Source: Escherichia phage vB_EcoM_G17 | Reading direction: 5' to 3' (one strand) | DNA length: 64,000 nt | Sequence record: MK327931.1 | Part shown: positions 12,363 through 56,899 of the stretch, one piece after another | Numbering within the stretch: position 1 is the stretch's first letter | Layout: each line of letters opens with the position of its first letter | Notes under the pieces: generated by a model | Database searches by the model: none | Told to the model about the DNA's origin: nothing | Seen by the model: the letters and a program-made list of their open reading frames with translations, nothing else | Position numbers and translations under genes: made by a program

Positions 12363-13856
12363 ATGACATATAGAATGTGGAAAAAAGGTAGAACCAATGA
12401 TTACAAGTTCATTGATTCTGCCATTGCTGAACAATACAACATTGGTGGAGTTGACATGTGGCTTTATGCATATGTCGGTCCAAAACAAGTTGCTGACAAC
12501 ACTGACTTATCCTATGGAGGTGATTATACATCTTCAGGATCAGTTGTGTCAAGTATTGGCGATTTAATTTTTGGTGACACACCAAACAGAAACTACAACC
12601 TTGAAGCTATCACACTTAGTTGTGTCTATCAAGTTCAAGAAGCAACTCCAGACTTGAAAATCCCAGGATTGTTCTTTAATTTCAACACTATGGACATCAC
12701 AATCCATTATAATACAATGATGCAGCGTTTAGGTAGAAAAATCATGCCAGGGGATGTGATAGAACTACCAAATTTACGTGATTTTGATGTATTTGGTAAA
12801 GATACAGGTCTAAACCGCTTCTATGTCGTCCAAGATGCATTTCGTACATCTGAGGGATACTCGGTTACGTGGCAACATCACATTTATAAACTTAGAGTTA
12901 AACCGCTAACCGACTCACCTGAGTACTCCGATTTACTCGGTAACAATAATTATCCTGATAATCCAGATGACCCTAATAATGGTAATGGAAATACCGATGA
13001 TGGTTCGTCGGAAAACAGTAACTATGGCAATGAAATGGATATCATGAACCGTATCATCATGCAAGCTGATGATGAAGTACCCTATATTCATTATACAAAC
13101 GAACATTTGTATGATGATCGACCTGATACAGTAGATTTATCAAAATATATGCTTAACGGTTATGATTTTCCAGAAGAACCTGCCGATGGAATGTATTTTT
13201 TGAAAAAAACATACCCAGTACTCAAAGAGTTTGTTAATGATACATGGATTTCTGTGGAAGTCAAGCGTGGAACCATCTTTCCCAGAAAACCAATGGATGG
13301 TGACTTCTTCTTTAAAGAAAATGACGCAGATGTGACAGGTTATACGTTGTATCAATATGATAAAAGTGCTAAAAAATGGTTAAATTGTGATGTAGAATAT
13401 ACTACCAGTGATGTTCCACCAGAAGATGTGGAAGATTTTTGTATTTTTTATAAAGAACCACACATTTATCAGTATAATGATGACAAGTGGGGGGAACCAA
13501 AGGTAACTTATGTCAATGAACCATTCACGTCCAATTGTGTATATGGTAATATTGATTCGCAACAAGATTATCGTCCTAAAATTCCACCAGCACGAGGTAC
13601 AGTCCCTGAAGGAAATATGTTCCCAACTGATGCAGTAGATGGTGACTATTTCTATCGCACCGATTATACTCCAGTTACGTTATGGGAATTCAATGCAACT
13701 AAGAATTCATGGGTTATTTTTGATTATGGTGGAAGAAAACCGTGGGAAGGTGCAGACTTAGCACTTACACAGTTTGTAAATAGTGATAACAAAGTTCCAT
13801 TACATGACGCAGTTAAACCTAATACTGTTTATCGCATACATAAGGACACAGAATGA
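12363..13856 (+). CDS. Hypothetical protein with internal repeats (possible structural protein)
   Basis: ORF with GGAGA SD before ATG at 12363 (track start 12351 is TTG); repeated P-x-DG-[MD]-[YF]-F and Y-x-Y-x3-KW motifs; stop overlaps next start (ATGA). Confidence 0.7.
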   Translation: MTYRMWKKGRTNDYKFIDSAIAEQYNIGGVDMWLYAYVGPKQVADNTDLSYGGDYTSSGSVVSSIGDLIFGDTPNRNYNLEAITLSCVYQVQEATPDLKIPGLFFNFNTMDITIHYNTMMQRLGRKIMPGDVIELPNLRDFDVFGKDTGLNRFYVVQDAFRTSEGYSVTWQHHIYKLRVKPLTDSPEYSDLLGNNNYPDNPDDPNNGNGNTDDGSSENSNYGNEMDIMNRIIMQADDEVPYIHYTNEHLYDDRPDTVDLSKYMLNGYDFPEEPADGMYFLKKTYPVLKEFVNDTWISVEVKRGTIFPRKPMDGDFFFKENDADVTGYTLYQYDKSAKKWLNCDVEYTTSDVPPEDVEDFCIFYKEPHIYQYNDDKWGEPKVTYVNEPFTSNCVYGNIDSQQDYRPKIPPARGTVPEGNMFPTDAVDGDYFYRTDYTPVTLWEFNATKNSWVIFDYGGRKPWEGADLALTQFVNSDNKVPLHDAVKPNTVYRIHKDTE

Positions 13857-36352: not shown

Positions 36353-36380
36353 ATTATATCACATCGTTTCAACTTGTCAA
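36353..36380 (-). promoter_or_regulatory. Consensus sigma70-type promoter (TTGACA-N16-TATAAT), proximal copy
   Basis: Minus strand reads TTGACA-agttgaaacgatgtga-TATAAT, with TG at -14/-15 (extended -10). Confidence 0.6.
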
Positions 36381-36882: not shown

Positions 36883-37278
36883 TTAGTCTCCAACAAAACC
36901 TTGACGTGCAGCATATGATGGTGCACCAGGCTCATTATAGTGTTGTACGCCTTCTTTGTCAATTGTTGGTCCCATACCTTCAGTTCCAAAACAACCTGCA
37001 ATGGCTTCCAACACTTCTTCATCAGCAACTTCAGTACTTTCATCATTATATCGAATGTCAGACAAAATGTCACAGGCTTTTTGTAGTTTATCTACAATTT
37101 CTTTTTGGTCTTCACCAGATTTAATCTTATCAACAATATCAATAAGACATTTGGTAATATCCTTAAGAACATCAACTGCTACAACATCGGATTCAACTTC
37201 AACTGAAAAACTTTCGTCTTCATCTCTTCCGGTAATTTCGTCTAACGCTTCAACTAGTTCACGATAATTATATTGCAT
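36883..37278 (-). CDS. Acidic hypothetical protein (131 aa)
   Basis: ORF; strongly D/E-rich. Confidence 0.55.
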   Translation of the reverse strand: MQYNYRELVEALDEITGRDEDESFSVEVESDVVAVDVLKDITKCLIDIVDKIKSGEDQKEIVDKLQKACDILSDIRYNDESTEVADEEVLEAIAGCFGTEGMGPTIDKEGVQHYNEPGAPSYAARQGFVGD

Positions 37279-53579: not shown

Positions 53580-54002
53580 TTAAATTAATCTATCACGTAG
53601 ACGGTCGTAATATTTTTTGTGTATAGCTAGTATACACTGATATGCAGAATAGTCAATACCAAATGTATCATCAATGAACATGTACTGATCAAGTGTTTCC
53701 GGTCCATTATCATCAACTGGTAATGTCCCTTCTTTTTTTGATAGTGTGTGCCACATCAACTCACTTTCAATATGGTGAGTTGCGTATGTCAATTCTATCT
53801 TACTTTTTCGTAGTAAAATTAACAATTCATCATTGTCGTCGAGTGCATTACGAAATTTAATACGAACTGTACCCTGGAAATTATTAGTGTACATAACACG
53901 ATGATGATTGTATGAAATCAAACCACGTCTTTCAGTACTGATTTCGTGTTCAGCAAAGTACTTTAACGTTTCATTAAATTTTGGAATTTTAGTAACGTCC
54001 AA
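53580..54002 (-). CDS. Hypothetical protein (140 aa), tandem paralog A
   Basis: Shares Y.FI.DTFGID...YQ.I...H..Y motif with the adjacent gene. Confidence 0.55.
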   Translation of the reverse strand: MDVTKIPKFNETLKYFAEHEISTERRGLISYNHHRVMYTNNFQGTVRIKFRNALDDNDELLILLRKSKIELTYATHHIESELMWHTLSKKEGTLPVDDNGPETLDQYMFIDDTFGIDYSAYQCILAIHKKYYDRLRDRLI

Positions 54003-54405
54003 TCACATAATCCTCATAAAGTTCGTATACCCTCATTATACTCTGATATGTATCAAAGTCAATACCAAAGGTATCCTCAATGAACTGATATTGCAAAAAC
54101 TCTTCCTCTGTAGCAGCAATAGGAAGAGTCCCGTTTCGTTGTTCTGTGGATTGAACATCCTCAATATACATCAACACTATACCTTCATCCAGATTTATAT
54201 CTATCATAAAAACATCTTCACTATAAAATATGTTATATGTACGGATGAAGAGATTTCCTGTTCTATCATAACTTGACACGTGTGTTTCATAATACATTTT
54301 ATCTAAACTAAAGAACAAACCTGTACTATCTGGCTTTTTAGTATTTTTTAATTTAATTTCGATAGCATCAATAATAGGTTTAATATCAAACTTTTTCATA
54401 GACAA
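53989..54405 (-). CDS. Hypothetical protein (138 aa), tandem paralog B
   Basis: YQFIEDTFGIDFDTYQSIMRVYELYEDY versus YMFIDDTFGIDYSAYQCILAIHKKYYDR; 14-nt overlap with paralog A. Confidence 0.55.
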   Translation of the reverse strand: MSMKKFDIKPIIDAIEIKLKNTKKPDSTGLFFSLDKMYYETHVSSYDRTGNLFIRTYNIFYSEDVFMIDINLDEGIVLMYIEDVQSTEQRNGTLPIAATEEEFLQYQFIEDTFGIDFDTYQSIMRVYELYEDYVIGRY

Positions 54406-54594: not shown

Positions 54595-54990
54595 TTATAA
54601 AAAGCAATTATACAGTTTATTGTACAATATAAAAAGGTCTTTCACATTATCATAAGTAATATCAGATACATCATGAATTAATGATAACTGAAAAAATGAA
54701 GCTTCGTCTATTTCTGCTGGAATTATAACATCACCATCTTCTTCGTCCATTTTATTGGTGTAGTATTTTATGTGATCTACATTCAACTCAATAGAGAACG
54801 CAATGTTGGTTTTTGTATAATCTTCAATTAATCCAATATATTGAGATTTTTCATTAATAAAAAATCCAATCCCAACACAACGGTTATCTGGATATGGATA
54901 GTACCATCTATTAATAACTAGGTGTTCAGGTAAGTCCATATCATGTGTTGATATTAGAGATTTTACAATTTCCATCCAGGAATAATTCAT
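54595..54990 (-). CDS. Hypothetical protein (131 aa)
   Basis: ORF. Confidence 0.5.
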   Translation of the reverse strand: MNYSWMEIVKSLISTHDMDLPEHLVINRWYYPYPDNRCVGIGFFINEKSQYIGLIEDYTKTNIAFSIELNVDHIKYYTNKMDEEDGDVIIPAEIDEASFFQLSLIHDVSDITYDNVKDLFILYNKLYNCFL

Positions 54991-55043
54991 AATTAAAACT
55001 CCATAAGAAAAGGGACAGAATTAATCTGTCCCTTTAGTATATA

Positions 55044-55376
55044 TTACTCTTCGTTTTCTGTCAAATCATCAAGAACTGGGTGTTCTGGATGGTTTCGGCG
55101 GTGTAATTTAATGCTTTTGTCTTTACTGAATACAGTTTCCATCTTATCAAAAGATTCAACAATTGCTTTATACAAATCAGCATCATCAGCAGTTACTGAT
55201 TTACTACCAGCAGTTAAAGTTACAGCATATTGAGTTTTATGCTCTTTCTTAACATGAACACCAATGTCTAGTACTGAAGAAGTACGGTACTTATCCAGAC
55301 TTTTTGCTTCATTGTAAATAGCATCTTGGATTGCTGGAGTGATATCAACGTTGCCTTGGATATTTAGATTTAGCAT
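55044..55376 (-). CDS. hpf: Ribosome hibernation promoting factor / RaiA (YfiA) family protein
   Basis: Co-linear with E. coli HPF by eye: MLNLNIQGNVDITPAIQDAI...LDKY versus MQLNITGNNVEITEALREFV...LEQY, then V.VK.E.....A.L...G......A...D.Y.AI....DK and C-terminal K..H; AGGAAGG SD. Confidence 0.7.
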   Translation of the reverse strand: MLNLNIQGNVDITPAIQDAIYNEAKSLDKYRTSSVLDIGVHVKKEHKTQYAVTLTAGSKSVTADDADLYKAIVESFDKMETVFSKDKSIKLHRRNHPEHPVLDDLTENEE

Positions 55377-55393
55377 ACTTCACCTTCCTTTTT

Positions 55394-56353
55394 TTAGAGT
55401 GAACTTAACAACAAATCTGCTCGGTTTGTAACTTGACGATACCATAAGGAATTCATAATTTCTTTTTTAAATTTCTTAGGGTTATCATTTTTCACACTTT
55501 TCCAAAGTTTATTAAACGTTGCTAATTTATCAACACCCATTGTATAGGACATTTCATAAAGAATACGTTGTTGTTCTTTGGTCAGATTTACTGCTTCTTT
55601 TTTCTGCATCAATAATAAAAAGTCATTATATGTTCTTTTCATATCTTGCATTAAAAGTTTATTGGCTTGAGCTTTGGTAATACCGTTTCTGTACTTAATC
55701 GCATCAGATTCTTTTCTACCCAAATAATGCCCATAACCTATTGTATAATTACCTTTCATGTCCTTGTAGGGATGAAATTTAGAATTGTGGAAAGGAACTC
55801 CGACTTTCCCACCAAGTAAACGGCGTTTGTTCTTGGACTGAAATTCAATTGAACCTTCAGCTTCTTTGATGTGATTGACAATTTCTGGATCATTATAATC
55901 AAACAGTACAGTCACATCTGGTAACAATACGTTCTTCAAATCCTCTTTTGTTGGGATAAAGATACCCTGAGAAGTATGAAGAGTAGCATTTAAATTGATA
56001 TTTTTCAACAAAATAACATACTCTTCAAGTTGTACATTTTTAGGTTTAAACTTTTTAGCAATAGAATAATAACTATCACCAGGTTGAACCGTATAATGCT
56101 TCTCGCCGCGTGGAACATCCTTTGATATTTCTACCTTTGGTAATTCCTGCTTTTGAATTTGCGTAACTTGTGGTTTTAAATTGTGTACCTGACTTTCGTC
56201 CGATGATGATACACGATCATTTTGAGAAAAACCATAAAATCCAATCGCAGCGACAAGTACTGTGCAAACTAGAACACCATAAGTAGTCTTAGTTTTCAGT
56301 GCTTTTTTCGCTTGTTTCAAAACGCCTCCTTTGTTGATTGTTAAGATGGGCAA
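55394..56353 (-). CDS. Membrane-anchored LysM-domain lysozyme (GH24-like); probable TTG start at 56320
   Basis: N-terminal hydrophobic segment VLVCTVLVAAIGFYGF; LysM-like HYTVQPGDSYYSIAKKF; C-terminal YKDMKGNYTIGYGHYLG resembling T4 lysozyme E..Y.D..G..TIG.GH; no ATG near the 5' end, but AAGGAGG sits 4 nt before TTG at 56320. Confidence 0.6.
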   Translation of the reverse strand: MPILTINKGGVLKQAKKALKTKTTYGVLVCTVLVAAIGFYGFSQNDRVSSSDESQVHNLKPQVTQIQKQELPKVEISKDVPRGEKHYTVQPGDSYYSIAKKFKPKNVQLEEYVILLKNINLNATLHTSQGIFIPTKEDLKNVLLPDVTVLFDYNDPEIVNHIKEAEGSIEFQSKNKRRLLGGKVGVPFHNSKFHPYKDMKGNYTIGYGHYLGRKESDAIKYRNGITKAQANKLLMQDMKRTYNDFLLLMQKKEAVNLTKEQQRILYEMSYTMGVDKLATFNKLWKSVKNDNPKKFKKEIMNSLWYRQVTNRADLLLSSL

Positions 56354-56488
56354 TCACAAAGATGGCAAAGAGGCCATTTGTAAAAGCCTCATCGGACTTT
56401 CTACAGTACAAAAACGTTCTTTTCAAATGTTTAAGTAGTATAGCATATTTTTATTTTATTACAAGACATATTTACTGTAAAAACCACA

Positions 56489-56899
56489 TTAATCGTAGTA
56501 GGTTCTACCTACAGTGATGTGATATTTAAAGTACTTGGTTGGTAGTCCTAGTTCATTTCTAATATGTGTGATGAAATCATCTTCAAATTCAATGATAAAG
56601 AATGAACCTGGATTCTTTTTATCTTTTACTATCTCAATACAAGGATTGAACTTTATCTTTACTTTCATTCCATCGTACTTTTTCCAGTACTCTGGATTTG
56701 GTGGCACTTCACCACGAACGATACTGACATGTGCTCCCCATTGTGGGTCTTTAATATCAATATGTAAGTCAGTTCTGATGAAGTACTGGTAGTATCGAAC
56801 CAACTGTAATGGAAGTTGTAGTACTAACCAGAAGTCCTTCTTCTTTTTCATAGTGCCACGTTCTGGATCATACACCAGAGTTCCTTCCATTTCAATCAT
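56489..56899 (-). CDS. 2H-phosphoesterase-like protein candidate (LigT/Acb1-like)
   Basis: Two H-x-[ST]-x motifs (AHVSIV, YHITVG) about 60 residues apart in a 136-aa protein. Confidence 0.4.
   Translation of the reverse strand: MIEMEGTLVYDPERGTMKKKKDFWLVLQLPLQLVRYYQYFIRTDLHIDIKDPQWGAHVSIVRGEVPPNPEYWKKYDGMKVKIKFNPCIEIVKDKKNPGSFFIIEFEDDFITHIRNELGLPTKYFKYHITVGRTYYD

Follow-up and report, generated by a model that had tools for sequence, protein, structure and literature searches.

Short HPF (YhbH) of Escherichia coli requires a free RMF pocket for the formation of 100S ribosomes, whereas RaiA (YfiA, protein Y) silences 70S monomers and does not allow 100S formation. In ribosome-bound RaiA, Arg95 and Arg96 touch 16S rRNA and uS7 (preprint 10.1101/2025.10.07.680626) and the C-terminal extension enters the RMF pocket (PMC7913689); the hibernation factors of E. 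coli also shield 16S rRNA from YbeY and RNase R (PMC7913689). Phage-encoded HPFs were described in 2019, from rV5-like Vequintavirus phages and the Cronobacter jumbo phage GAP32, in a list from which the genes of Asteriusvirus are missing (Mizuno et al., PMC6375957), and we found no other experimental paper on a phage HPF in the literature. Here we analyse an Asteriusvirus member of this family, gp425 (WNN14706.1), which lies in a 64,000-nucleotide stretch of Escherichia phage vB_EcoM_G17 (MK327931.1), called the window below. At 100% identity it matches Escherichia phage Sharanji (OR545507.1), a jumbo phage of the genus Asteriusvirus with a genome of 350 kb. The gene and the parts of it that the following argument uses are these:

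55044 to 55376, minus strand: coding sequence of gp425, with an ATG start, 110 residues and a TAA stop inside the end coordinate; residues 1-87 make up the folded core and residues 88-110 the disordered C-terminal tail.
55380 to 55388, minus strand: strong Shine-Dalgarno sequence of gp425, AAGGAAGGTGA (= GGAAGGTGA), ending 3 nt ahead of the ATG.
55097 to 55111, minus strand: codons of the tail motif K-S-I-K-L-H-R-R-N-H-P (codons 89-93+), located from alignment columns.

The initial annotation had reported a 110-residue HPF/RaiA-family open reading frame (ORF) with a good Shine-Dalgarno sequence at this place. The predicted ORF coincides with it exactly and lies on the minus strand, which the annotation had left unstated, and the Shine-Dalgarno sequence is the one listed above; one of AGGTG/GGAGG type stands at the same place ahead of the gene in 9/9 phages compared. 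The identity of gp425 is already known. The depositors' GenBank annotation and RefSeq agree with the HPF/RaiA assignment, the 121Q and PBECO4 orthologs being named "HPF/RaiA family ribosome-associated protein" in RefSeq, and other depositors have called the gene "ribosome-associated inhibitor A", "putative sigma 54" or "hypothetical protein". Sigma-54 labels are a historical misnomer of the HPF/RaiA family. The Sharanji paper places gp425 among possible translation-regulating factors (PMC11895373). To this the present analysis adds the RaiA-like tail, the lineage-specific loss of helix-1 contacts, the exchange of the core as a cassette, a promoter within the tail codons and a conserved operon leader.

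That gp425 is a genuine member of the HPF/RaiA family is confirmed by family-level matches far beyond chance. A Pfam search, proposed as a check in the initial annotation, returned Ribosomal_S30AE (PF02482) at 41.0 bits (E=3.3e-10) against a gathering threshold of 23.7 bits, with residues 5-87 lying on profile positions 2-84 of 88. Among PDB sequences phmmer matched 18 chains, 17 of which are HPF, RaiA or pY, the best being Thermus HPF (E=5e-7), and a profile made from 13 members of the phage clade gave E=7.5e-9 to 3e-6 with solved HPFs and 2.4e-4 with RaiA. The best sequence matches were the N-terminal domains of long HPF-type proteins (9t0z, 5njt, 2ywq and 6gzx). In the AlphaFold2 model of gp425 four strands (residues 2-8, 36-44, 50-56 and 59-65) accompany two helices (residues 14-30 and 68-86), and residues 88-110 are predicted to be disordered. 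The top 38 Foldseek matches to this model in the PDB were all HPF, RaiA, pY or RafH, and it superposes on E. coli HPF from the 100S ribosome (6h4n_x) with a root-mean-square deviation of 1.7 Å over 90 columns. Pairwise identity is 28% over 89 residues with E. coli HPF (E=2e-7) and 25% over 88 residues with E. coli RaiA (E=1e-5). Both the profile score and the fold matches bear out the family assignment of the initial annotation. Its further claim of co-linearity with E. coli HPF along the whole length holds for residues 2-87 and fails for residues 88-110, which have no counterpart in the 95-residue HPF. Two other assignments were tried and rejected. Dodecin (PF07311) scored 19.5 bits, under its cutoff of 22.5, and no dodecin appeared among the fold matches; for an Acb4-like nucleotide sponge there was no PF13876 match at E≤1 and no Acb4 among the PDB or BFVD fold matches.

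The resemblance to RaiA lies in the C-terminal part of the protein. Short HPF shares with gp425 the fold, a similar N-terminal strand and the DxY start of helix 2, but it ends at residue 95, whereas gp425 bears a 23-residue extension (88-110) past helix 2. RaiA, like gp425, consists of a single S30AE domain (113 versus 110 residues) with a flexible acidic end. In an alignment of 79 sequences, Arg93-Arg94 of gp425 occupy the same columns as Arg95-Arg96 of RaiA, and past this pair the two proteins alike have a short linker and an acidic end (DDLTENEE in gp425, VEEVEEE in RaiA). The codons of the motif K-S-I-K-L-H-R-R-N-H-P vary synonymously among phages, so that the constraint here acts on the protein. 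The architecture of gp425 is thus RaiA-like, a short core followed by a tail with a conserved Arg-Arg. Long HPFs, from Firmicutes, Thermus and others, differ from gp425 in having a C-terminal dimerisation domain (about 180-200 residues in total), and this domain is absent from the 110 residues of gp425, which ends after its disordered tail. Since the tail continues beyond Arg-Arg as in RaiA, it should run toward the RMF pocket, and a tail of the RaiA type would be expected to occupy the very pocket that HPF needs. A RaiA-like tail makes silent 70S monomers more likely than 100S dimers. In other respects gp425 departs from RaiA, as it is phage-encoded and downstream of a lysozyme gene, it lacks R17, R23 and K26, the basic residues of RaiA helix 1, and has Thr in place of R83.

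We compared the clade at the ribosome-contacting positions listed in the same preprint (10.1101/2025.10.07.680626), which in E. coli HPF numbering are R17, K23, K26, K80, R83, K87, K89 and K91. The equivalents of K80, K87 and K89 are invariant in the phage clade, as are K29, the DxY motif and the basic beta2-beta3 loop VHVKKEHK. Within helix 1 the buried positions are invariant and all the exposed positions variable; no variation affects the exposed lysines of helix 2, and the net charge of the core is similar to that of E. coli HPF and RaiA. We infer from this pattern that binding would be retained through the sheet, helix 2 and the tail, with fewer and possibly weaker contacts from helix 1.

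Our preferred reading, which we hold to be slightly more likely than not, is that gp425 has a RaiA-like role, binding vacant host ribosomes and holding them as silent, nuclease-protected 70S monomers. The protein would sit at the canonical site between head and body of the 30S subunit of vacant ribosomes, where it would overlap the mRNA path and the positions of A- and P-site tRNA. Its likely contact elements would be the beta-sheet, the VHVKKEHK loop, the helix-2 lysine ladder K78/K85/K87 and the tail motif HRRN, and the tail past Arg-Arg would run toward the RMF pocket and exclude RMF. Idle ribosomes would then be parked as 70S and not as 100S particles, with the decoding centre and the 3' region of 16S rRNA shielded from nucleases, and would be quickly reusable. 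For the phage, the benefit may be that translation capacity is preserved or controlled over a lengthy infection of gut E. coli that grow slowly.

Several observations weigh against a RaiA-like role. The more specific family models are not reached: gp425 scores 36.3 bits with the HPF/YfiA equivalog TIGR00741 of NCBIfam (cutoff 40.9), 23.2 bits with the HPF equivalog NF007780 (cutoff 125) and 19.3 bits with the RaiA/YfiA equivalog NF007654 (cutoff 158). Because the models for both host proteins fail, each by a shortfall of roughly 100 bits or more, gp425 is an ortholog of neither host hpf nor raiA. Helix 1 in the Asteriusvirus clade has lost the basic residues that bacterial homologs conserve (R17 is Q, N or H; K23 is E, G or D; K26 is variable and non-basic), K91 is replaced by Ile or Val, and the beta3-beta4 hairpin is shorter by two residues. 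The position of R83 is Thr in the phage clade. The phmmer alignment places Thr at that position also in Thermus thermophilus HPF, which was solved on the ribosome, so Thr there is not disqualifying and the replacements do not exclude binding; and since R17, K26 and K29 are still present in Munch-type phages, the helix-1 losses are specific to Asteriusvirus. The conservation of the tail end (DLT...EE-stop) is due in part to a promoter that overlaps it (see below), and the conserved acidic end 'DLTEDEE' is for this reason no evidence that the segment functions in the protein. For the one phage HPF studied experimentally, that of rV5, which belongs to a different lineage, neither the 70S nor the 100S fraction contained the protein after a high-salt wash, and 100S levels were unchanged (PMC6375957). 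This negative result and the missing helix-1 contacts are the chief evidence against ribosome binding by gp425. Four Salmonella-infecting Asteriusvirus isolates (SD-15_S21, SD-2_S15, SD-1_S14 and SD-6_S16), whose genomes measure 310-326 kb, have deletions in the HPF gene; SD-15_S21 (L013:2001-2225) has lost residues 22-58 in frame and the other three retain C-terminal fragments only. If the assemblies are correct these isolates are natural knockouts, and the deletions imply that the gene is dispensable for plaque formation. Finally, what the analysis shows is family membership, fold, the pattern of conservation, purifying selection, synteny and operon structure, whereas ribosome binding itself, what the tail does and any gain for the phage are things that we infer.

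The gene is an old possession of these phages. An exhaustive profile search of 1.84 billion cluster representatives found only 63 proteins at E≤1e-3, six of them at E≤1e-10, and the closest relatives outside Asteriusvirus belong to other jumbo phages: the homolog in Erwinia phage Hallingskeid is 46% identical to gp425, and those in Salmonella phages Munch, 7t3 and SE_PL and Klebsiella phage fENko-Kae01 are about 31% identical. More than 30 isolates, and distant genera as well, carry the ORF intact and in synteny, its relatives sharing a gene order that runs from lysozyme through HPF, a terminator and a few small ORFs to a CCA-adding enzyme, a NUDIX hydrolase, a glutaredoxin/thioredoxin and a macro-domain protein. 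Lysozyme and HPF genes are adjacent in 121Q, UE-S1, A4, vB_Ec-M-J, Turkey5, EJP2 and Hallingskeid, and in Munch one additional ORF stands between them, so that synteny of the HPF gene extends from Asteriusvirus through Hallingskeid to Munch. This conserved position marks gp425 as an old, vertically retained gene of a divergent jumbo-phage lineage. We reject a recent capture of host hpf or raiA on the identities of 25-28%, the failed equivalogs and the small number of profile matches, the nearest of which are in jumbo phages.

The phage HPFs described in 2019 resemble gp425 in being S30AE proteins of about 105-111 residues from large enterobacterial myoviruses. That of rV5 differs from gp425 in its 44% identity to E. 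coli HPF, which makes it look recently captured, and in its Gly-Lys-rich basic tail; the GAP32 protein matches gp425 structurally (TM 0.72) at an identity of 16%. A tblastn search with the Sharanji protein did not recover the rV5 and GAP32 genes even at E=10. Scans of IMG/VR added only phage 121Q itself. A second IMG/VR pattern match (L015) fell inside the coding DNA of an unrelated contig and was taken as chance. We also rejected as a relative a 1605-residue metagenomic protein (P0015), whose 133 bits with the phage HPF profile are the sum of weak matches over 29 stretches in a tandem-repeat protein. This protein, from outside the window, has about 29 near-identical 54-residue repeats and probably reflects an artefact of assembly or of tandem repeats.

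Compared in pairs, seven Asteriusvirus alleles of the HPF gene give dN/dS values from 0.11 to 0.27, which indicates purifying selection on the protein. Against this background one stretch stands out when Sharanji is aligned with phage 121Q:

55143 to 55395, minus strand: recombination patch with sharp boundaries, in comparison with phage 121Q, starting at the lysozyme stop codon and taking in the Shine-Dalgarno sequence and HPF codons 1-78.

The mismatch map of the two phages has 52 differences in the 253-bp patch and 7 in about 2 kb of flanks. The tree of the HPF gene conflicts with that of its flanks, and UE-S1 is the reverse mosaic, with an HPF gene 99% identical and a neighbouring lysozyme end only 67-76% identical. 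It follows from the concentration of differences in the patch and the reverse pattern in UE-S1 that near-identical phages have exchanged the folded core, as a cassette, by recombination, with the tail left unchanged. We considered positive selection as the cause of the divergence between Sharanji and 121Q; it was rejected on the dS of 0.58 and dN/dS of 0.14 of the gene, which indicate import of an allele by recombination.

These findings bear on other accounts of what gp425 might do. Like short HPF, it could join host RMF in converting 70S to 100S ribosomes and so shut translation down, which is the dimerisation that the initial annotation had offered as an option beside stalling; with a RaiA-like tail it is the less likely of these two. 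The core does score E. coli HPF slightly above RaiA, at 30.4 versus 24.2 bits with the clade profile and 23.2 versus 19.3 bits with the equivalogs, and the N-terminal motif MLNLNIQGNVDIT resembles MQLNITGNNVEIT of HPF. However, the 23-residue extension is foreign to short HPF and carries its Arg-Arg in RaiA columns; such an extension reaches the RMF site in RaiA, which forms no 100S; the 110 residues hold no long-HPF dimerisation domain; and 100S formation was unaffected by the rV5 phage HPF. A dimeriser is in our judgement very unlikely. Mizuno et al. (2019, PMC6375957) put forward another hypothesis, in which a weak, fast-exchanging binder displaces host HPF, RaiA and RMF and thereby reactivates ribosomes in stationary-phase cells. 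Loss of the basic helix-1 contacts would plausibly weaken binding, a RaiA-like tail could exclude RMF, and the disappearance of rV5 HPF in high-salt washing is compatible with weak binding. Yet a protein bound in the A/P channel still blocks translation, and net activation would need special kinetics, so that we think this competitor model unlikely.

A further possibility is that the S30AE fold now serves a task away from the ribosome, for example by binding a different RNA, a signalling nucleotide or a protein of the host. There is a precedent in Acb4, the anti-CBASS sponge (PF13876), a small phage protein whose structure is reported to resemble that of V. cholerae HPF (PMC11722364). Acb4 differs from gp425 in its additional N-terminal helices and tetrameric state, and has no profile match to it. 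Re-use would accommodate the hypervariable exposed face of helix 1 and the recombination of the core, a pattern frequent in host-interaction genes, as well as the finding that rV5 HPF is not ribosome-associated and the weak, sub-threshold Dodecin match. It fits poorly with the invariant positions, namely the beta2-beta3 loop and those lysines of helix 2 that contact the ribosome, and with the top 38 fold matches, which include neither Acb4 nor any other non-ribosomal structure; PF13876 gives no match, and the dS of 0.58 with dN/dS of 0.14 in the patch speaks for import of an allele and not for positive selection. We hold such re-use to be quite unlikely. The deletions in SD-15_S21, SD-2_S15, SD-1_S14 and SD-6_S16 might even suggest that gp425 is a decaying passenger without function for the phage, but this is scarcely credible given dN/dS of 0.11-0.27 across alleles, an ORF kept intact and in synteny in the isolates and distant genera named above, and the conservation of the Shine-Dalgarno sequence and terminator.

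The RaiA-like role that we prefer can be extended, at a level that we regard as doubtful, to the whole jumbo-phage S30AE lineage, which would then be a viral mimic of RaiA that blocks 100S formation driven by RMF and HPF and shields the decoding centre and 3' end of 16S rRNA from YbeY and RNase R or from the rRNases of abortive infection. Were this so, ribosomes would stay usable for a slow 350-kb phage while the cell starves or defends itself, and the variable face of helix 1 and the swapping of cores would reflect adaptation to the host or evasion of a host sensor. To our knowledge few phage genes directly touch the ribosome, and none of HPF type has a demonstrated function. If gp425 does bind host ribosomes, large phages would manage the pool of idle ribosomes by protecting or silencing them, and the gene would offer a handle on phage infection of non-growing gut bacteria.

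The features that surround the gene within its transcription unit, all on the minus strand, are given in the direction of transcription:

56453 to 56481, minus strand: sigma-70-like promoter ahead of the leader, from a promoter scan.
56321 to 56445, minus strand: 5' leader of the lysozyme-HPF unit, about 110 nt, in which a GAGGC/GCCTC hairpin accompanies the invariant block TGTAGAAAGTCC-N3-4-GAGGCTTT.
55394 to 56320, minus strand: gp426, a LysM and phage-lysozyme gene upstream of gp425 and co-oriented with it (Pfam PF00959 at 45 bits, LysM at 22 bits).
55036 to 55064, minus strand: sigma-70-type promoter for downstream genes, matching the consensus at 11/12 positions in a scan and overlapping the end of the HPF coding sequence.
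55003 to 55035, minus strand: hairpin resembling an intrinsic terminator, AAAGGGACAG-ATTAATT-CTGTCCCTTT followed by a T-rich run, from a terminator scan.

The stop codon of gp426 is separated from the start of gp425 by 17 nt, and the two genes are probably co-transcribed. The gene starts with TTG, and its product joins a hydrophobic N-terminal segment to a LysM motif and a lysozyme domain of T4 type. In related phages the lysozyme gene is annotated as anything from 'tail lysozyme' to 'endolysin', and only one of the two predicted lysozymes of phAPEC6 was detected in its virion proteome (PMC7247149). The literature yielded no time-course study of transcripts or proteins in any Asteriusvirus. 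The block and hairpin of the leader are kept in all eight phages aligned, from Sharanji to Munch, and the exact 11-mer of the block occurs once in the window. For the leader of Sharanji the folding energy is -32.9 kcal/mol (z=-3.86). Rfam gave only chance-level matches to the leader and none at gathering score in the 64-kb window, where no tRNA genes were found either. A long-range leader helix that would sequester the lysozyme Shine-Dalgarno sequence was predicted for Sharanji and discarded, as vB_Ec-M-J and other phages do not share it.

At the other end, the terminator that follows the HPF stop codon makes this gene the last of the lysozyme-HPF unit. Hairpins of -14 to -23 kcal/mol occur at the terminator position in 9/9 phages, and in UE-S1 and Munch the element is annotated as a terminator. 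The promoter is built into the coding sequence: its -35 element TTGACA consists of the Leu-Thr codons of 'DLT', its 17-nt spacer of the last four codons and the stop, and the -10 element TATACT comes directly after. TTGACA-17-TATACT/TATAAT is conserved at the nucleotide level, synonymous sites included, in 8/9 jumbo phages, among them Munch and Hallingskeid. Its predicted start site falls within the 5' arm of the terminator hairpin, and host RNA polymerase probably transcribes the genes downstream of HPF from this start inside the arm. Two sequences, GTAGAAAGTCC and TGCTATACTA, were tried as repeated phage promoter motifs and rejected, each being present as a single copy in the window with near-matches at chance level. 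Perfect TTGACA-N16-18-TATAAT promoters stand on the minus strand at 12523 to 12552, 36353 to 36380 and 36934 to 36962; these three compare with 0.13 expected in the window, which suggests that the phage uses strong host-type promoters.

Directly downstream of the HPF gene, small minus-strand ORFs at 53580 to 54002, 53989 to 54405 and 54595 to 54990 form a tandem paralog set. The first two are 41% identical over their C-terminal 54 residues, with the motif FI-DTFGID-x-YQ (E=9e-12), and the third is weakly similar (E=0.002); Pfam finds no domains in the three. The wider neighbourhood holds genes of the RNA and tRNA repair type, namely a 2H phosphoesterase-like ORF, a CCA-adding enzyme, a NUDIX protein and a macro-domain protein, which fit circumstantially with a theme of preserving the translation apparatus. 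The 2H-like ORF (56489 to 56899, minus strand, 136 residues) lies just upstream of the lysozyme-HPF unit and has two H-x-T/S motifs (HVSIVRG and HITVGRT). It scores 25.8 bits with PF22547, the 2H phosphoesterase 'Swiss Army Knife' family, just under the cutoff of 27, and its product is possibly an RNA end-healing enzyme.

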